From an uncultured Alphaproteobacteria bacterium (GTDB lineage Bacteria; Pseudomonadota; Alphaproteobacteria; Rs-D84): DNA of 64,000 nt. Below the pieces are notes generated by a model. That model did not search any database. It worked only from the letters and a program-made list of their open reading frames with translations, and was not told where the DNA came from. This document shows, one piece after another, positions 53,091-63,024 of this stretch. The position numbers were made by a program, and so were the translations under genes. Location: positions 10,362 through 74,361 of the forward strand of contig CAJOGD010000005.1 in NCBI GenBank assembly GCA_905233975.1, written 5' to 3'. Each line of letters starts with the position of its first letter. Position 1 is the first letter of the stretch.

Positions 53091-53693
53091 TTTGTGGTGC
53101 GAGCAAAGGGGAACATACCATATTTCCGTCCTGCCCCAGAAAACTAACATTTTTGCTAATTTTCAGCACCTAAATTCGTCAAAATGTCATACACTTTGTA
53201 TCACACTTTCTTGTTAATCTGATTATAATCCATTTTTTTAATAATGTAAACGGGTTTTTATGGTCGGGTAACCATTTTTACGTCTTTGTGGTCAAAAAAC
53301 ACATCCAATTTATAATTTTTTATCAACAAAGGTCTAAAAATTACGATTCTGGTATCATAATACCATAAAAATCAAAAAAAATGCAAAAAAATGACATTTA
53401 CAAAGTCGAAGAAGCCGAAAAAAAATAAAAAAAATAGTTCTATATAATATAGGGTGATTATTTTTACCTTATAAACGTAACCTATTTTTTATAGCCCCAA
53501 AAGCCACCATTTTTGGTCAAAACCAAATAATATCGAAAAATAAACCATACACGGATTTCAACCAGAAAATGTCAGTGTGATTATTTTTGTCGGTTTTTAA
53601 CATTTGGACCCTTTATGACGGCTTTTGGATTCCAATTAACATTTTCGGTCAGAAAACAACAAAACGACCGAATTTAAGTCAAAGGTATTAAAC

Positions 53694-54631: not shown

Positions 54632-55153
54632 ATGAAAAAATTCATAACAGACACTTTTTATACAAAACAACAATATCTTAAAATACTTCCACAACTTATT
54701 GACTTCTTAAACGAAAATAACCCCACACATTATTTGTGTATTCGTTTACCACTTTTTTCTGAAACATCTGATATGTATAAAGCACTTGATATATTGCACC
54801 CCATTTTATTGGACCTTGAACGTATATTAGGTGGGCTACATTGGAACAGACACCACTTACGTTTTCGTGGTGTAATCGAACTGGGTAAAAAACACGTGTG
54901 TCATTTTCATATTCATTTAACAGCACCCAATCACACATTGGAACAAATACAACGTGCTTGTGAAATTATTATGCACTTACATAAAATGCCGTCCAGGGCA
55001 ATAGACGTGCAAAACATAAACCGAACACCTGAAAATCTTGCTGGGTATAACAGTAAAGAAATTTTAACAGATAACCACCAACATTTTGACTCACTTAGGT
55101 TATTTACATCTGAACAATTATTGAATATTCCGTATAAAAGCCCAAAACAATAA
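54632..55153 (+). CDS. HUH-endonuclease-like protein (rolling-circle Rep / relaxase-like)
   Basis: HVCHFHIHL (His-hydrophobic-His) followed ~40 aa later by AGYNSKEI (Y-x-x-K), the motif II/III spacing of HUH Rep proteins. Confidence 0.4.
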   Translation: MKKFITDTFYTKQQYLKILPQLIDFLNENNPTHYLCIRLPLFSETSDMYKALDILHPILLDLERILGGLHWNRHHLRFRGVIELGKKHVCHFHIHLTAPNHTLEQIQRACEIIMHLHKMPSRAIDVQNINRTPENLAGYNSKEILTDNHQHFDSLRLFTSEQLLNIPYKSPKQ

Positions 55154-55355: not shown

Positions 55356-55486
55356 ATAAAATCCTTTTGTTTGAACGATTATATAATATGAAAATGGTGG
55401 TCGCAAACGGGTAATTTAATAAAATTTGTTGATTTACACAAGGCACTATATCATACTTCTATACGTATAATAAAGAAGGGTCAAAT

Positions 55487-56251
55487 ATGGTAAAAATAAA
55501 AGTTACGAATGCCTGTGCACATTTTTTTGAGAACACAAATCATCTGGCTGAATTTTTTTATTACATAATTTGTACCACACAACAAGTTGATGAAATGAGA
55601 ATTTGTGCCGTCAAAGCATTAGCTAAGATACACGAACAAGAACCAGCAAAAGAAGAATTAAAACATGCGGCAACAGATAAATTGAAAAAATATTTCGGAC
55701 TAATATTGGAACTGTGGCTGTGTCGTTTGGTAGAATGTTATGAAAATTATTTGTCGTCTATCCTTAAAGATGTTTTTTTATGTTGCCCACAAATTTTAAA
55801 ATCATCAGAAGTGGTAAAACTAGATGAGGTTTTGAAATATAAAACAATGGATGATTTTGTTACAGAATTAACAGAAAAAAAAGTAAACGAATTATCGTAT
55901 TCGTCTTTTGACGATTTGTTTGATTTTTTTGATAAAAGATTAGGAGTAAAAATTATTGACGAAAGCAATAAAAGCATCGTAAGGGAAGCAATTGAAATCA
56001 GAAATATATCTGTTCATAATGATTGTGTTATTAACAGAAGATATATTAATAAATTACAATTAAACGAAAATCTTCTTGGGAACAGAAAAGATATAGAACC
56101 TGAATATTTAAATAATGTTATTGATGTTTTGTATAATAATGTCATGGAACTTGATGATAAGTTGATAAAGAAGTTCGAAATCAAGAATTGCAAGGTTGTG
56201 GGAGATGAATTTGTTAAACGTATAATGGAACAAAAAACTGATAAAAAGTAA
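55487..56251 (+). CDS. hypothetical protein with HEPN-like Rx4H motif
   Basis: IEIRNISVHND contains R-x4-H in a predicted all-helical protein. Confidence 0.35.
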   Translation: MVKIKVTNACAHFFENTNHLAEFFYYIICTTQQVDEMRICAVKALAKIHEQEPAKEELKHAATDKLKKYFGLILELWLCRLVECYENYLSSILKDVFLCCPQILKSSEVVKLDEVLKYKTMDDFVTELTEKKVNELSYSSFDDLFDFFDKRLGVKIIDESNKSIVREAIEIRNISVHNDCVINRRYINKLQLNENLLGNRKDIEPEYLNNVIDVLYNNVMELDDKLIKKFEIKNCKVVGDEFVKRIMEQKTDKK

Positions 56252-58393: not shown

Positions 58394-58991
58394 ATTGTCT
58401 ACTGGGTATTTTAATAAACTGGCACAATTAAAAATTCAACAGATATTTCCTGAATGGAAATTAGAATTGGTTGACAAACCTGATTTACAGGATGAAACAA
58501 ATAATATCGGAATTGAAGTTACTATTGCAAAAGATAAAGTAGATGGAATTTTTGATAGTGTATGGAATGAGTGGGCAGGGAAAGGAATTACATCAAACGA
58601 ATTTCGGGACAAATTTACAAATACTTATTTTAAAGAAAAAATTATTCCTGATATGGAACATCCTGTATGTGTCAAAGTGAACGGTAACTTAGATTCCGTA
58701 ATCATGAAAATTTTGGGTGCAATTAAAACAAAATCAAAAAAATTTAATGGTTACAAAAAATTTAATAAAAATGGATTATTCATTTATTGTCCTGAACCTT
58801 TATGGGAAGAACAATTTTCTGTGTTAAAACAACGTATATATGAAGGAATTTACCCATTTGATTTTTTTATAATAAGTATGACAAATAAACTGCTTTTGAT
58901 TGAAAATAATGAACTTAAAATATACGACATTGATTTTGATAAAATTGAACAATTAACACAAGAATCTTTAGATTTTTCACAAAATCATTAA
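58386..58991 (+). CDS. hypothetical protein
   Basis: Starts MVYRLSTGYF, overlapping the previous stop (ATGGTATATAG). Confidence 0.4.
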   Translation, partial: VYRLSTGYFNKLAQLKIQQIFPEWKLELVDKPDLQDETNNIGIEVTIAKDKVDGIFDSVWNEWAGKGITSNEFRDKFTNTYFKEKIIPDMEHPVCVKVNGNLDSVIMKILGAIKTKSKKFNGYKKFNKNGLFIYCPEPLWEEQFSVLKQRIYEGIYPFDFFIISMTNKLLLIENNELKIYDIDFDKIEQLTQESLDFSQNH

Positions 58992-59105
58992 ATTCTCCGT
59001 TTCGGACCCATATAGAACCATACAGAAACCATTAAAATTTGACACAGGATACCCTGAAACACGTTTTTATGGGGATTTATTATTGTTTGATTAAATGGTG
59101 TTTCT
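58991..59105. repeat. direct repeat, left copy (flanks ATPase-nuclease module)
   Basis: aattctccgtttcggacccatatagaaccatacagaaaccattaaaatttgacacaggata is 57/61 identical to 61157-61217. A further tttattattg.ttgatta..tggt segment is also shared. Confidence 0.85.
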
Positions 59106-59125
59106 GTTAAGGTTTCTGATATAAA

Positions 59126-59659
59126 CTATAACATAGACAAGATCTCATTTTCATTTAATTTTTTACATTTAATAACTTTAAATTTGTTGCGAATATGTTT
59201 CAGTTCTGGTTTCCTGCTATACATCATGCCTTTATTTATATTAATCCCAACACTTTTAAACATATCTTTACAAATCAACAACAATTGATACGGTGATTTA
59301 TTTGAATTTAATTTGGAAGAAACTTGTAAAATAAAAGCACCTAAAGACATATCATCAATATGTGAATATACCGATTTTATTTTTTTTAACAACTCTTCAG
59401 GGTTTATGTTTTTTATTGGTTGCGCCTTTATTTCTATAGCCAATAAGTTTTTGCCTTTATATTTATATATACAATCAACGTCTGGTCCCTTTTTGCCACA
59501 CAAATCTTTACCTTGAATAAAAATTTTTTGTTTCAACAACGGTTCGGTTTCAAAATCGTTACATTCCCAATTAGATTCCTTATTTTCTGCACAACAACGT
59601 TCACACAATGAACAATGTGTACATTTTTTTCTTGGCAATGATTCAGATTTTTCTAACAT
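59126..59659 (-). CDS. small Zn-ribbon + PD-(D/E)xK-like nuclease candidate (effector of two-gene module)
   Basis: N-terminal CTHCSLCERCC Cys cluster. GPDVD ... (17 aa) ... AIEIK matches the PD-(D/E)xK arrangement. Start ATG overlaps the ATPase stop (TAATG). Confidence 0.45.
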   Translation of the reverse strand: MLEKSESLPRKKCTHCSLCERCCAENKESNWECNDFETEPLLKQKIFIQGKDLCGKKGPDVDCIYKYKGKNLLAIEIKAQPIKNINPEELLKKIKSVYSHIDDMSLGAFILQVSSKLNSNKSPYQLLLICKDMFKSVGININKGMMYSRKPELKHIRNKFKVIKCKKLNENEILSML

Positions 59660-60957
59660 TAATCTATATCCGGTAATAAACTTTCCGCATCATAAAAAGA
59701 TTTGAATATCACATCTTCTTTTTCAGCAAAATTTTCCACGTTATCTATTATGCCCTTTTTTAAGTCTGCAAAGTAGAAATTGACCTTTGACTCCAATTTT
59801 TTAACATGAGCAAAATCTTGCAAAGCATTTATAAGTATTGAACTATGCGTTGTTAAGAGAACAGAGACATCATTTTCAAGCAAAGTTATCAATAATTCTG
59901 CTAACCTGACTTGCCATTCTGGGTGTAGATGATTTTCTGGTTCATCAAAAATAAACATGTGGTCAGATGACAACATGCCATATCTTGCCATTTTTTGTAA
60001 AATACCAAACATTTTTTCGCCAGATGCCATATTGCCAACATATAAATTATTATCTGTATTAGCTGGCACAAAGAAAAAATCCTGTTTGTCGGGTATATAA
60101 ACCAATTCGCCTTTTAATAAATCAGATAAATCTTTATATACTGATTTACACAAAGGATTCTGTGTTTTTTGGAAATTTACCTTCAATTTATCCAAAAGGT
60201 CTTTCCAATAATACGGTATATTAATGGCATTTGCCACCTGTAATAATAAAGGTGTTTCTATAAAAGTAACTTCTGGTAAAATACGTTGTTTCAGAGTTTC
60301 GTTAATTTTTATCGACAAACGTTCAGAAAATGGTAACACATTTGCATTATTAGAAATTTTATATTCCAACAATTTATCGCCATTATTATCAAGTACCACT
60401 TCTGACGTAGCGTGAGTTCCTAAATTATTAACTTGAAATCTGAACATTTGGTTATACATAAATTCCAAAGAATTTTTGATTTCTTCCTGTTCTGATATGT
60501 CTGTAAAAACACCCATTAAGTCATTTAATGATTTTTTTGCAGATAACTTGCTTTTTTCATCCAAAGTTAAAAATGTATCAATTAAATTGATTTGAGCAAT
60601 AATTATCCTATGTGCTTCGGAATAGTTATCTTCTTTTAACAATCTTACCAAAGTTTCTGCAAAACTAGCATTAAAACGTTCTAATAAAATACTTACATCG
60701 TGATTTCTTGATTTAGCATCAGATTTTTGCAAATTATTTTGAATACTATAAAACAATGTTCTGCACATACTTTCTACAAGCATTCTGCGGTTTTCAAAAA
60801 CAATTCTTTTGCTATTGCTAACGGACTTAATTATGGTATAAACAGTTTTGCCAACCGTGCTTTTACCTGTCCCATTAGGTCCCGCTATAACATTTAACCC
60901 ATTCAGAGTTATATCTGCTTTTTTGATATAGCCAACATTTTTCAGGGTTATTTTCAT
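59659..60957 (-). CDS. ABC-type ATPase (AAA_21/AAA_15 family, SMC/RecF-like), defence-island type
   Basis: Walker A GPNGTGKST, signature ASGEKMFGIL, Walker B MFIFDEPENHLHP, H-loop LLTTHSS, with a ~250-aa helical insertion between the Walker A and signature motifs. Confidence 0.7.
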   Translation of the reverse strand: MKITLKNVGYIKKADITLNGLNVIAGPNGTGKSTVGKTVYTIIKSVSNSKRIVFENRRMLVESMCRTLFYSIQNNLQKSDAKSRNHDVSILLERFNASFAETLVRLLKEDNYSEAHRIIIAQINLIDTFLTLDEKSKLSAKKSLNDLMGVFTDISEQEEIKNSLEFMYNQMFRFQVNNLGTHATSEVVLDNNGDKLLEYKISNNANVLPFSERLSIKINETLKQRILPEVTFIETPLLLQVANAINIPYYWKDLLDKLKVNFQKTQNPLCKSVYKDLSDLLKGELVYIPDKQDFFFVPANTDNNLYVGNMASGEKMFGILQKMARYGMLSSDHMFIFDEPENHLHPEWQVRLAELLITLLENDVSVLLTTHSSILINALQDFAHVKKLESKVNFYFADLKKGIIDNVENFAEKEDVIFKSFYDAESLLPDID

Positions 60958-61156
60958 CGTAAAAATCCTATTGTTCCATTGTATGATAATGTATTTTTTT
61001 TACTTGACAAGCCTATTATATCATTTTTTGTAAAAAAAAACAGGGGTTAATTAAAATTTAATTAAATTCCCCTTTGTTGCCAGTAATTATATCACATTTT
61101 AACAAAAAAGTCAAATTTTTATTGTTTCTGCGCTGGTTTGTTAGAAAAAAATCGTA

Positions 61157-61265
61157 AATTCTTCGTTTCGGACCAATATATAACCATACAGAAACCATTA
61201 AAATTTGACACAGGATAAGTTAAACCACCATTGGATTGGTGGTTTATTATTGATTATGGTTTTAC
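61157..61265. repeat. direct repeat, right copy
   Basis: aattcttcgtttcggaccaatatataaccatacagaaaccattaaaatttgacacaggata plus the hairpin aaaccaccattggattggtggttt, a probable int terminator. Confidence 0.85.
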
Positions 61266-61302
61266 AAATCTGGAATTAAATCTAAATTGTTTGTTTCTAC
61301 AA

Positions 61303-62814
61303 TTACAATTTTTTCATTGTTTTCGTCCATTTATCAAAATATGGTTGTAAAAAGTCATAATTCAACTTATCAATTTGTTCTTTTATCTGGGGTAAAGTGT
61401 GATTTGAATACGATTGTTCCATCGTGTTTTTGCCTTCCCAACCGATAATATCGTTAATAAAAGATTGGATTATTCCTGCATTTTGTAATCTTAAACTCGC
61501 GTTTTTGCGGAACGAATGAAAATCTAACTGGTCACCATTTTTTGATTTAACCCCGATTTCTTTCAAAAATACCGCCAAACCACGTGACCAATATTTATTT
61601 TCAAAATTGCCTGTTTTTGTCTTACATTTTGGAAAAATGAAGTCATCATCTGTGGTATTTAATTTTTCTTTTCTGGCTTTAACCCAATCAACAAAACCCA
61701 TATTCAACAACTGCGATGGTATCGGAACAATACGTTCAGATGCTTCGGTTTTAAGGTGTTTTACAGGGTGATTTTGTCTAAAATAAATACAATCAAGCCC
61801 ATCCTGGTTAATAATGTCACCATATTGCAAGGTTGTTGCTGCATTTATTCTGGCACCGGTAAACAAACCAATCAAAGCCGTCCAAAATTCGTCCGGGTTA
61901 GTTTTAAAGTGGTCGTATTTCGGGTCAAACATTTCCAATAATTGACTTTCGGAATACGGTAAATGTGGTTTTTGTTGGTGTTTTGGTGTTTTTGGTAAAT
62001 CAGGCAACAAATTTATAAAATTTTCTTGGTATGAATCTGGGGCTAAAATATGTGCTTGTTTTATCAAATCACGAATATATCTGACGTATTTTCGTTTGGC
62101 ATCACCCTTAATTTGATACCCTTTGATATTTTCTGCTATATTTTGGATTATTTCCGGATTATTAAAATCATCATAATCACAATCTGGGTTCAAACCCACT
62201 TCAGATAACATTTTTATAATACTGTTGTTTTTTCTGTCGGTTTCTGCTTTTTGGTTATTGGACTTTTTTAACATTGATTTCAAAACTTCACCAATTTTAT
62301 ATTTTTTGGTTTGTTTTGGTTGTTGAATTTGAGCACTTGCCAATAATTGTTCCACATTATCCACTTTGGCCAATAAAGCATTTATTTGTGGAATAACAGA
62401 TTTTAATTGTCCCAACATAATTTTGTCCCCGGGGTCAAGTTGGTTTTGTTGTATCAAATCTAACTTTTCGGACATGTTTTTTAATTGTTTTAAAACCATA
62501 GGGTTTGTTTTATCCGATATCCTGCGGGCTGCAAACCCGGTAAAATTACCACCAGTGCCACTATAATCAAATATTACCTGATTCCATAACGTATTGAAAT
62601 CATTCATAAATTGTATCGTGTCAAAATGTTCAACGTTTTCCGCCATAATTTTTGCTTTTTCCCTTGCTTCGTAATAATTGTAGGTATGTAACGATTTACA
62701 AAAGAACCGTCTTTTACCGTTTTGTCTTGGTAATTCCATTGTAAAATAAAAAATATTGTTTCGCAACCGGATGTATTTATCGGTATTACAATATGTCATA
62801 CACTTTTTTATCAT
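61303..62814 (-). CDS. int: tyrosine site-specific integrase (phage integrase family)
   Basis: C-terminal catalytic domain with LIGLFTGARINAATTL (Arg I), HSFRKNASLRL (H-x-x-R) and a terminal Tyr region (GWEGKNTMEQSY). Adjacent to the tRNA attachment site. Confidence 0.85.
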   Translation of the reverse strand: MIKKCMTYCNTDKYIRLRNNIFYFTMELPRQNGKRRFFCKSLHTYNYYEAREKAKIMAENVEHFDTIQFMNDFNTLWNQVIFDYSGTGGNFTGFAARRISDKTNPMVLKQLKNMSEKLDLIQQNQLDPGDKIMLGQLKSVIPQINALLAKVDNVEQLLASAQIQQPKQTKKYKIGEVLKSMLKKSNNQKAETDRKNNSIIKMLSEVGLNPDCDYDDFNNPEIIQNIAENIKGYQIKGDAKRKYVRYIRDLIKQAHILAPDSYQENFINLLPDLPKTPKHQQKPHLPYSESQLLEMFDPKYDHFKTNPDEFWTALIGLFTGARINAATTLQYGDIINQDGLDCIYFRQNHPVKHLKTEASERIVPIPSQLLNMGFVDWVKARKEKLNTTDDDFIFPKCKTKTGNFENKYWSRGLAVFLKEIGVKSKNGDQLDFHSFRKNASLRLQNAGIIQSFINDIIGWEGKNTMEQSYSNHTLPQIKEQIDKLNYDFLQPYFDKWTKTMKKL

Positions 62815-62947
62815 TTTTCACCCCTTTGTTTTTTGAAGAAAGTGAAAATTAAAAGTGTTGGATTTCTAGGGTTTTCTGTAATTTGGTGTGTTCCAAACCC
62901 AAAAATAAAAATCCAACAAAAGTGTTGGATTTCTAACATTTTAACTT

Positions 62948-63024
62948 TGGTGCGAGCAAAGGGGCTCGAACCCTCGACCTCAACCTTGGCAAGGTTGCGC
63001 TCTAGCCAACTGAGCTACGCTCGC
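62948..63024 (-). tRNA. tRNA-Gly (GCC)
   Basis: Reverse complement GCGAGCGTAGCTCAGTTGGCTAGAGCGCAACCTT-GCC-AAGGTTGAGGTCGAGGGTTCGAGCCCCTTTGCTCGCACCA. The 3' 17 nt are duplicated at 53095. Confidence 0.9.

Follow-up and report, generated by a model that had tools for sequence, protein, structure and literature searches.

An OLD-like ABC ATPase paired with a small predicted PD-(D/E)xK nuclease on a tRNA-Gly island: a candidate anti-phage module

The window (the whole 64,000-nucleotide stretch of DNA that was analysed) carries a compact two-gene unit of 1,832 bp (~1.8 kb) within an integrated island. The genes and the features that define the island are:

59659..60957, reverse strand: ABC ATPase, 432 aa, of the OLD-like AAA_15/AAA_21 clade; presumed sensor or regulator subunit
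59126..59659, reverse strand: small nuclease-fold protein, 177 aa, predicted PD-(D/E)xK with a conserved Cys3+1 cluster; presumed effector
61303..62814, reverse strand: tyrosine integrase, 503 aa (Pfam Phage_integrase 2.7e-11; phrog_1 integrase 3.2e-21)
62948..63024, reverse strand: tRNA-Gly(gcc), the integration target (ARAGORN; Rfam tRNA 65.9 bits)
62948-62964: proximal att repeat, the 3' 17 nt of the tRNA-Gly, TGGTGCGAGCAAAGGGG
53095..53111, no strand assigned: distal att repeat, TGGTGCGAGCAAAGGGG, matching the 3' end of the tRNA-Gly at 17/17 positions; far island border

The upstream ORF, encoding the ATPase, is joined to the downstream 177-aa ORF by a TAATG stop/start overlap read in the sequence, an arrangement in which the downstream gene is predicted to be translationally coupled to the ATPase gene. 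The ORF coordinates, lengths and overlap, as well as the four ATPase motifs detailed below, are as a preliminary description of this DNA had given them. Its claim of low-GC integrated DNA next to an integrase, in a tRNA-Gly island, was likewise borne out: a repeat search recovered the two 17-bp direct repeats, which delimit an island of ~9.87 kb, and the GC content is 0.26-0.33 between ~53 and 63 kb as against 0.42-0.53 elsewhere in the window, with the distal repeat coinciding with the GC drop at ~53 kb. With an integrase adjoining the tRNA, a repeat of the tRNA 3'-end at the far border and atypical composition, the pair is cargo of a tRNA-Gly-integrated island. Two promoter-like sites lie between the integrase and the ATPase gene:

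60983..61010, reverse strand: promoter-like site near the ATPase start, TTGTCA-16-TATCAT (consensus scan only, 10/12)
61086..61114, reverse strand: strong sigma-70-type promoter-like site, TTGACT-17-TATAAT with TG (scan 11/12)

The region of the former is 92-97% identical in the related loci L001, L002 and L007, and 3' of the latter is a hairpin with a T9 tract (61032-61075), whose stability is not exceptional (-10.3 kcal/mol, z -1.09).

Its motifs and domain matches show that the upstream gene encodes a complete ABC ATPase. These comprise a Walker A motif (GPNGTGKST, aa 26-34), a signature motif (ASGEK, aa 311-315), a Walker B motif (FIFDEPENHLHP, aa 335-346) and an H-loop (TTHS, aa 369-372), together with Pfam scores above the gathering thresholds for both AAA_21 (63.5 bits, cut-off 27, E 4.7e-17) and AAA_15 (57.7 bits, cut-off 32.1, E 2.1e-15; model aligned full length, residues 2-376), which place the protein in the OLD-like AAA_15/AAA_21 clade, the family originally proposed for it. 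The top PADLOC matches are HEC-02A (7.6e-26) and PD-T4-4_A (5.8e-25), followed by PDC-M47A, NsnB, AriA (1e-17), PtuA (1e-14), GajA (1e-13) and Old (1e-11). The protein is also matched by phrog_14430 (1.3e-42), and its PDB sequence matches include AriA and an OLD-family nuclease.

The 177-aa protein contains the stretches CTHCSLCERCC (aa 13-23), GPDVDCIY (aa 58-65) and AIEIK (aa 74-78), the last two of which had been read as the hallmark of a PD-(D/E)xK nuclease. The modelling agrees with this call: an AlphaFold2 model computed with 22 relatives (pLDDT 92, superseding a run from 4 close homologues alone with pLDDT 42) has a restriction-endonuclease-like fold with a predicted β-β-β-α-β core (strands 47-49, 63-67 and 71-78, helix 87-100 and strand 105-113), and D62, Y65, E76 and K78 are invariant in 22/22 relatives at identities down to 17%. 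In the model D62 lies just before strand 63-67 and E76 and K78 inside strand 71-78, the canonical motif places of this superfamily, whose second strand begins with an acidic residue and whose third strand holds the (D/E)xK. The protein is thus predicted to be of the restriction-endonuclease fold and is a candidate nuclease with a D62...E76-x-K78 site. The finer points of the original claim fared less well: both motifs are present, but the gap between GPDVD and AIEIK is 11 and not 17 residues (13 between D62 and E76), and P59 and D60 are not conserved. The cysteine-rich stretch is also present, but only C19 and C22 of it are kept across the family, along with C33, also in the N-terminal region, and C165, C-terminally located after the last strand. 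Because C13, C16 and C23 are not conserved, the reading of CTHCSLCERCC as a Zn-ribbon was discarded as stated; we infer that C19, C22, C33 and C165 bind a metal (Zn or Fe-S), stapling the N-terminal extension to the nuclease core.

HMM searches, as advocated in the preliminary description, matched the ATPase with Pfam and PADLOC models and the small protein with none; the latter had no match in Pfam, PADLOC 2.0, NCBIfam or PHROGs, none by tblastn in phage and plasmid collections, and nothing meaningful in a profile search of PDB sequences. Foldseek searches with the nuclease model returned no significant solved or viral structure (best E 0.035 and 0.0097), the nearest solved fold being McrC, with type IIS and nicking restriction enzymes coming next. 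Weak matches of the relatives include the CARF_PDDEXK nuclease domain (2.2e-5) and Cas4, the family HMM gives 20 bits to a phage-encoded partner, and hhalign against single phage and Bacillus partner sequences yields low probabilities. Of 1.84 billion cluster representatives, 13 belong to the nuclease family, which is thus very rare; it is patchily distributed over phyla and occurs in Alphaproteobacteria of the gut and rumen as well as in further uncultured lineages.

In every relative examined, down to 38% ATPase identity, the ATPase and its partner are encoded by adjacent, co-oriented genes, which either overlap or are separated by a few bases (at most 20 nt, in L016 and L017). Their settings include three integrase types and tRNA-Gly or tRNA-Pro islands; the neighbours are GmrSD, AAA_14/DUF4143 and NUDIX genes in L010, and an Eco57I-type methyltransferase, ResIII/T5orf172 and a resolvase in L016 and L017, while no recognisable defence neighbours were found in the contexts of L012-L015. 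The pair is therefore inherited as one unit across very different genomic contexts, and both genes are under purifying selection (dN/dS 0.03-0.09 for the ATPase against L002 and L007, and 0.19-0.26 for the nuclease).

The ATPases of PARIS, Septu, Gabija and P2 Old share the OLD-like AAA_15/AAA_21 ABC clade with that of the window, and the pair would follow the same logic of an ATPase sensor and a nuclease effector. The effectors themselves are different: in place of the PD-(D/E)xK domain, PARIS, Old and Gabija have Toprim/DUF4435 (AriB, Old, GajA), with a UvrD helicase as a further partner in Gabija (GajB), and Septu has HNH (PtuB). Pfam and PADLOC scans found no HNH, Toprim/DUF4435 or UvrD-like domain in either window protein, consistent with the earlier statement that the effector is neither HNH nor Toprim/DUF4435, and membership in Septu, PARIS and OLD was discarded on effector type. 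Two further statements, on an effector far below the size of its known counterparts and on an uncatalogued architecture, are not supported: the known partners span 145-210 aa, and the combination of an ABC ATPase with a PD-(D/E)xK nuclease is already validated in PD-T4-4, HEC-02 and WonAB.

HEC-02 of Dickeya dianthicola, discovered embedded in Hma systems, consists of HEC-02A (342 aa) and HEC-02B (169 aa), both genes being required for defence (Payne et al., bioRxiv 10.1101/2024.01.29.577857). It resembles the window pair in having two co-oriented genes for an ABC ATPase and a PD-(D/E)xK protein of ~170 aa (NERD-like in HEC-02B), and the nuclease motif block D-x-x-Y...[LIV]-I-E-[IV]-K-[AD] is common to both. 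In PADLOC the window ATPase scores highest against HEC-02A, albeit no better than against PD-T4-4_A; the match falls into two stretches, mainly in the C-terminal half (best 252-393 to profile 159-299 of 338), the window ATPase is ~90 aa longer, and its BLASTP identity to the Dickeya HEC-02A is 21% (E 3e-10). The nucleases are more distant: the Dickeya HEC-02B sequence obtains 15 bits from the family HMM over the motif block only, weak HEC-02B matches appear in 2/22 relatives with one model each (0.004-0.011), the HEC-02B PADLOC models do not match the window nuclease at E<=0.1, and hhalign against HEC-02B as a single sequence gives 15.5%. HEC-02B is also without the N-terminal Cys-rich extension, and the window pair sits on a tRNA island, whereas HEC-02 is Hma-embedded.

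PD-T4-4 is a validated defence system whose ATPase and nuclease genes together occupy 1,973 bp (Vassallo et al. 2022, PMC9519451), close to the size of the window pair. It too has an AAA_15 ABC ATPase directly followed by a PD-(D/E)xK nuclease (~190-210 aa), forms higher-order complexes, and is mobile-element cargo, on an ICE-like element and on small plasmids. Residues 1-383 of the window ATPase align to positions 1-377 of the 460 in the PD-T4-4_A profile, at the above-stated 5.8e-25 as against 4.5e-233 for the true member on the Klebsiella plasmid pKPN6 (474 + 210 aa). The motif of PD-T4-4_B is D...D-Q-K, and the protein lacks a Cys cluster. Similarity of the window nuclease to it is not detectable: the PD-T4-4_B PADLOC model matches neither the window nuclease nor any of the 22 relatives, and the values from the family HMM (4.3 bits) and from hhalign against a single PD-T4-4_B sequence (6%) are both off-motif.

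WonAB, taken together with the 'OLD-ABC ATPase + novel REase' operon, provides the sole mechanistic data for this ATPase and nuclease class. Both genes, the ATPase motifs and the nuclease residue K71 are needed, and the system acts by abortive infection via translation arrest, with genomic DNA not degraded (Adams et al.). The Lon-labile WonB is toxic in excess and non-toxic without WonA, which is thus no antitoxin (Adams et al.). As in the window, an OLD-like ABC ATPase is combined with a small (~145-170 aa) variant PD-(D/E)xK nuclease, WonB having ~145 aa, as prophage or mobile-element cargo; the WonB catalytic block C-D...[FI]-[IV]-E-L-K aligns with D62...E76-x-K78, and many WonB proteins also have N-terminal CxxC/CxxxC motifs. 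The ATPase motifs differ, however (GPQAxGKS, SSGQQE and EEPEAHL in WonA; GPNGTGKST, ASGEK and DEPENHLHP in the window), BLASTP with E. coli WonA covers 113 C-terminal residues only (E 2e-7), and gene order varies among WonAB matches (nuclease first in Geobacillus). A 10-sequence WonB profile gives 14.9% in hhalign against the nuclease family, with the catalytic residues aligned, and in view of this value and the divergent ATPase motifs the pair was not assigned to WonAB. More generally, since the profile-profile probabilities are low, we claim no membership in the HEC-02B, PD-T4-4_B or WonB families. The pair is probably a new variant of the known PD-T4-4/HEC-02/WonAB architecture, with a nuclease only remotely similar to HEC-02B and WonB.

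On present sequence evidence, the pair is best read as serving defence or abortive infection, with contextual support from its being island and integrase cargo and from RM or GmrSD neighbours in some relatives. The preliminary description had named a non-nuclease fold and confinement to transposition or conjugation modules as speaking against such a role; the model of the small protein shows a nuclease fold, its D...ExK residues are invariant, and the pair is not confined to such modules. We consider it probable that the pair is a self-contained abortive-infection-type anti-phage module of the OLD-like ABC ATPase and small PD-(D/E)xK nuclease class. WonAB, PD-T4-4 and PARIS suggest a mechanism by analogy: the ATPase would dimerise or oligomerise via its nucleotide sites and keep the nuclease in an inactive complex, at a stoichiometry that might be fixed because translation of the two is coupled, while its variable insert regions would sense an infection cue. 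ATP-dependent activation or release would then let the nuclease cut nucleic acid, and its target, as with WonB and AriB, may be a translation-apparatus RNA and not bulk DNA, with the result that phage development is halted and the infected cell sacrificed.

The cutting could alternatively be restriction-like, with the ATPase loading or translocating on foreign DNA in an NTP-dependent manner and the nuclease cutting phage DNA while the host is spared, as in McrBC or OLD/Gabija. This is unlikely. In its favour, the nearest solved fold is McrC, the partner of the McrB NTPase, several systems of PD-(D/E)xK nucleases and NTPases degrade DNA in vitro, and the relatives in L010 and L016 adjoin restriction genes. 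McrB is an AAA+ GTPase and not an ABC ATPase, and McrC is twice the size of the window nuclease, with 8% identity and a fold-level resemblance only. The closest characterised systems argue against a restriction-like action: PD-T4-4 complexes are inactive on all DNA substrates assayed, WonAB arrests translation while leaving genomic DNA undegraded, and in the pair Pfam and PADLOC detect neither a DNA-recognition or modification-reading domain nor a methyltransferase partner. The pair might instead serve the island, as an addiction or stabilisation module with an ATPase-held nuclease toxin or as a weapon against competing mobile elements, and owe its retention to maintaining the island in the population. 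In four related loci the pair directly follows the integrase of the island, with a strongly conserved promoter region in front of it, which fits this reading, as do the toxicity of excess WonB and the presence of bona fide PD-T4-4 on small Klebsiella plasmids of ColE1 type, pKPN6 among them, that have no other cargo; however, L010 and L012-L016 have no integrase nearby, and WonA is no antitoxin to a nuclease that is harmless without it. We regard such a role as improbable, and since a module can provide both addiction and phage defence, it would be an added role more than a replacement.

A housekeeping pair for DNA repair or recombination, formed by an SMC/RecF/SbcC-like ABC ATPase and a structure-specific nuclease, is scarcely credible for horizontally acquired low-GC DNA and so rare and patchily distributed a nuclease family; the SMC_N score of the ATPase is below threshold, its best matches are all defence families, and SMC/RecF-type repair was discarded on context and rarity. 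Beyond the preferred reading of an abortive-infection-type module, a bolder proposal, speculative and rather unlikely to hold as a whole, is that the effector may define an undescribed PD-(D/E)xK family with a nuclease-gating Cys3+Cys1 metal or Fe-S staple, a mirror of Cas4/AddB, and that the module may form a discrete cassette of 2.2 kb flanked by a conserved ~60-nt element, a possible site-specific or hotspot recombination site for swapping (defence) cargo among tRNA-targeting islands.

The novelty of the pair is narrower than first claimed and lies in its nuclease sequence family, which is undetected by PADLOC 2.0, Pfam, NCBIfam and PHROGs, so that a PADLOC-type scan would miss the system. 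A family invisible to current annotation tools is thereby added to the fast-growing class of ABC ATPase and PD-(D/E)xK defence systems, in which the same ATPase scaffold occurs with at least four mutually unrecognisable PD-(D/E)xK partners, and effector-based defence-finder models hence under-count such systems. The compact, well-modelled pair with its clear point mutants also offers a test case for how such ATPases control nucleases, the conserved Cys cluster being one more feature through which they might be regulated. In practical terms the benefit is modest, as the family is a candidate from which a further PADLOC or DefenseFinder model could be built but introduces no new principle.

The preliminary description had further placed the pair between direct repeats, which are as follows:

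61155..61239, no strand assigned: upstream repeat copy, core ~60 nt, containing CAAATTTTAATGGTTTCTGTATGGTT
58989..59073, no strand assigned: downstream repeat copy, core 60/63 identical to the upstream copy

These repeats are real (72/85 identical, with none expected by chance), but the upstream copy alone is conserved in related islands, being kept in L001, L002 and L007. The downstream copy is specific to the island version in the window and is absent 3' of the pair in L002, L007, L008, L009, L010 and L012; with the repeats absent around the pair in L002, L007-L010 and L012, they were discarded as a conserved feature of the pair or a target-site duplication. The ~60-nt core is also present in 13 further metagenomic loci, where it adjoins tRNA genes or integrases and accompanies different cargo; for the cargo genes next to it Pfam gave no informative matches. 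An Rfam scan of the flanking repeat for structured or known RNA families returned no matches besides tRNAs, and the 5' flank of the downstream copy is similar to the sequence flanking the integrase on its 3' side in L022, L025 and L031.

The ATPase and nuclease genes are two minus-strand ORFs sharing a TAATG stop/start overlap, within a tRNA-Gly island of ~9.87 kb bordered by two perfect 17-bp repeats of the tRNA-Gly 3' end (53095-53111 and 62948-62964), where GC content drops to 0.26-0.33 (53-63 kb) from about 0.45-0.5. The overlapping ORFs, the low-GC tRNA-Gly setting with an adjoining integrase and the direct repeats bracketing the pair, all part of the preliminary description, prove to be real:

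58989-59073 and 61155-61239, flanking direct repeat, 85 nt, 72/85 identical, core 60/63
59126..59659, minus strand, small nuclease ORF, 177 aa
59659..60957, minus strand, ATPase ORF, 432 aa
60983-61114, minus strand, near-consensus promoter-like site and second promoter-like site upstream of the ATPase (consensus match)
61303..62814, tyrosine integrase, 503 aa
62948-63024, tRNA-Gly(gcc)

The pair combines a complete ABC ATPase with an obligately coupled partner of PD-(D/E)xK fold that retains its catalytic triad, and it is both mobile and under purifying selection. All four ABC motifs previously claimed for the 432-aa protein were located: Walker A GPNGTGKST (aa 26-34), the ABC signature ASGEK (aa 311-315), Walker B FIFDEPENHLHP (aa 335-346) and the H-loop TTHS (aa 369-372). 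It exceeds the Pfam gathering scores of AAA_21 (63.5 bits) and of AAA_15 (57.7 bits, with the whole domain aligned) and has hundreds of homologues; in PADLOC it ranks highest against HEC-02A (7.6e-26) and, over the full length, PD-T4-4_A (5.8e-25), followed by PDC-M47A, NsnB, AriA, PtuA, GajA and Old. The upstream promoter-like site (TTGACT-17-TATAAT with TG) precedes a hairpin with T9 (61032-61075; -10.3 kcal/mol, z -1.1) and then the second promoter-like site; this region, 92-97% conserved in related islands, may represent a short leader, a small RNA or an insulator.

For the 177-aa protein, searches of Pfam, PADLOC 2.0, NCBIfam and PHROGs gave no match, and its family is rare: four clusters were found in a 5.8-billion word-indexed database, 13 representatives at E<=1e-3 when 1.84 billion representatives were searched exhaustively with an HMM, and 16 clusters with a broader profile. 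An alignment of 22 sequences, reaching down to 17% identity, shows D62, Y65, E76 and K78 to be invariant and C19, C22 and C33 nearly so, with a further Cys within the last 25 residues of every member (C165 here). The residues on which the first description leaned, namely C13, C16 and C23 of its Cys cluster and P59 and D60, are not conserved; its call of a nuclease fold is nonetheless supported, as D62, E76 and K78 are invariant and a confident AlphaFold2 model built from this alignment (pLDDT 92, pTM 0.89) has the canonical PD-(D/E)xK core. In the model D62 directly precedes strand 63-67, and E76 and K78 lie within strand 71-78, which is followed by helix 87-100 and strand 105-113. Foldseek searches of PDB and BFVD returned nothing significant, the weak matches again being nucleases; agreement is at the level of the fold only. 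The fold assignment is well supported; solved structures are all distant from this protein. The conserved three-plus-one Cys set probably binds a metal, tying the N-terminal extension to the nuclease core.

A partner of 166-186 aa lies directly 3' of the ATPase, on the same strand, in every context examined, i.e. the 100% and 80% variants (L001-L007), the 60% variants (L008, L009), and loci at 70% (L010), 53% (L012-14), 41% (L015) and 38% (L016/17) ATPase identity. The two genes either overlap or are separated by a few bases, with the widest gap, 20 nt, in L016/L017, and the partners show the same D...ExK and Cys pattern as the window nuclease. The neighbors vary, with three kinds of integrase and tRNA-Gly or tRNA-Pro islands; GmrSD, AAA_14/DUF4143 and NUDIX genes adjoin the pair in L010, an Eco57I-type methyltransferase, a ResIII/T5orf172 helicase and a resolvase in L016/17, and ordinary chromosomal genes in L012-15. 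Comparison with the 80% variant shows purifying selection on both genes, with dN/dS values of 0.03-0.09 (ATPase) and 0.19-0.26 (nuclease).

The preliminary description regarded this architecture as uncatalogued and the effector as much smaller than known partners. Neither is new, because three validated systems have both: HEC-02, an ABC ATPase with a ~170-aa NERD-like PD-(D/E)xK nuclease in which defence needs both genes (bioRxiv 10.1101/2024.01.29.577857); PD-T4-4, with ATPase and nuclease within 1,973 bp (PMC9519451), a bona fide copy of which on the Klebsiella plasmid pKPN6 encodes 474 and 210 aa; and WonAB of the Vibrio cholerae WASA-1 prophage, an OLD-like ABC ATPase with a ~145-aa variant PD-(D/E)xK nuclease (Adams et al.). 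The latter authors group WonAB with PD-T4-4 and with an 'OLD-ABC ATPase + novel REase' operon as parts of a larger uncharacterised family (Adams et al.).

Membership in any of the three is not supported. In PADLOC, the B-component models of HEC-02 and PD-T4-4 do not recognise the window nuclease, and only isolated relatives weakly match HEC-02B (0.004-0.011), CARF_PDDEXK (2.2e-5) or Cas4. Scored one-to-one against single partner proteins, the family HMM gives 20 bits for a phage-encoded partner, 15 for Dickeya HEC-02B (motif block only), 9.6 for a Bacillus plasmid partner and 4 for PD-T4-4_B (off-motif). The hhalign probabilities are 15.5% for HEC-02B, 14.9% for a 10-sequence WonB profile, in which D/E/K line up correctly, and 6% for PD-T4-4_B; similarity of the ATPase to HEC-02A and WonA, at 21-28% identity, is confined to its C-terminal part. 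Given the failed models and this weak remaining similarity, the pair is therefore classed as a variant within this group and is not assigned to any of the three systems. In PADLOC-DB 2.0.0 the validated Dickeya nuclease HEC-02B matches PDLC04145 (named HEC-02A) at 1.2e-85 and ATPases match PDLC04146 (named HEC-02B); the component labels look swapped, and PADLOC output for HEC-02 should be read with care. More distant ATPase homologues, at 25% identity, lie on an unannotated gut phage contig (L021, MT835532.1, 2950-4876) and a Bacillus cereus plasmid (L019, NZ_CP128105.1, 4001-6048). The protein encoded next to each, 192-222 aa long, has the same D...[FI]-[VI]-E-[FI]-K block and matches nothing in the databases; the two loci may represent additional branches of the class that have gone unrecognised.

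In WonAB neither gene is dispensable, nor are the ATPase motifs or K71 of the nuclease; infection is aborted with arrest of translation while genomic DNA stays undegraded, and WonB is Lon-labile and toxic only when WonA is present (Adams et al.). The PD-T4-4 complex forms higher-order assemblies and is inactive on all DNA substrates tested. By analogy with these systems and PARIS, an ATPase dimer or oligomer would bind the nuclease and hold it inactive until the ATPase senses an infection cue and sets off an ATP-dependent activation, whereupon the nuclease would cut nucleic acid, plausibly translation-related RNA, and abort the infection. The main rival is a restriction-like mode in which the nuclease cuts DNA; a lesser one makes the pair an island-addiction module. 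The original defence-system call is thus supported in part: the pair is a probable defence module, though one of known architecture.

The upstream repeat copy begins a block, comprising the promoter region and ATPase, that is 97-100% identical in nucleotide sequence to the related loci L002 and L007, whereas their integrases are 54-60% identical to that of the window at the amino-acid level and the nuclease gene is only 78-85% identical at the nucleotide level (dS 0.48-0.67, versus 0.13-0.17 for the ATPase). Homology to these loci stops directly after the nuclease gene, the DNA further downstream being unrelated. Because identity differs so sharply between these segments, the locus (59100-61300) is a recombination mosaic, and the history of the nuclease gene differs from that of the ATPase gene beside it. 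The downstream repeat copy is unique to the window version, and the sequence on its 5' side is similar to that found 3' of the integrase in other islands. The repeat is a conserved ~60-nt element, with a core CAAATTTTAATGGTTTCTKTATGGTT, eight variable nt and then GTCCGAAACGAAGAA, containing two ATGGTT half-sites 11 nt apart. Its 26-nt core recurs in 13 metagenome loci (L022-L034), none with the ATPase-nuclease pair and each with different downstream genes; it follows a related integrase in four, lies 120-400 nt past a tRNA-Pro gene in five, and has a tRNA-Lys or tRNA-Asn gene nearby in two more. The element may therefore be a conserved boundary or regulatory site where islands of one family swap cargo. 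In one of these loci (L025) the adjoining cargo gene is weakly Abi_2-like (0.009).

Several further features of the island were observed. A third, degenerate copy of the att 17-mer (13/17; 55395-55411) could be chance or a relic of tandem island accretion, and two ~25-nt direct repeats (AAAAGTGTTGGATTTCTA...; 62851-62875 and 62918-62942) between the tRNA-Gly gene and the integrase start are candidate arm-type binding sites of the integrase. A 254-aa ORF (55487-56251, plus strand) that contains an R-x4-H motif (EIRNISVHN) and weakly matches RTasHEPN in PADLOC (4.2e-4) may be a second, HEPN/Abi-like defence gene. A 173-aa ORF (54632-55153, plus strand) containing HFHIHL, with a weak, below-cut-off match to the replication-associated REP_ORF2-G2P family (3e-4), may indicate that the island encodes a replication function.
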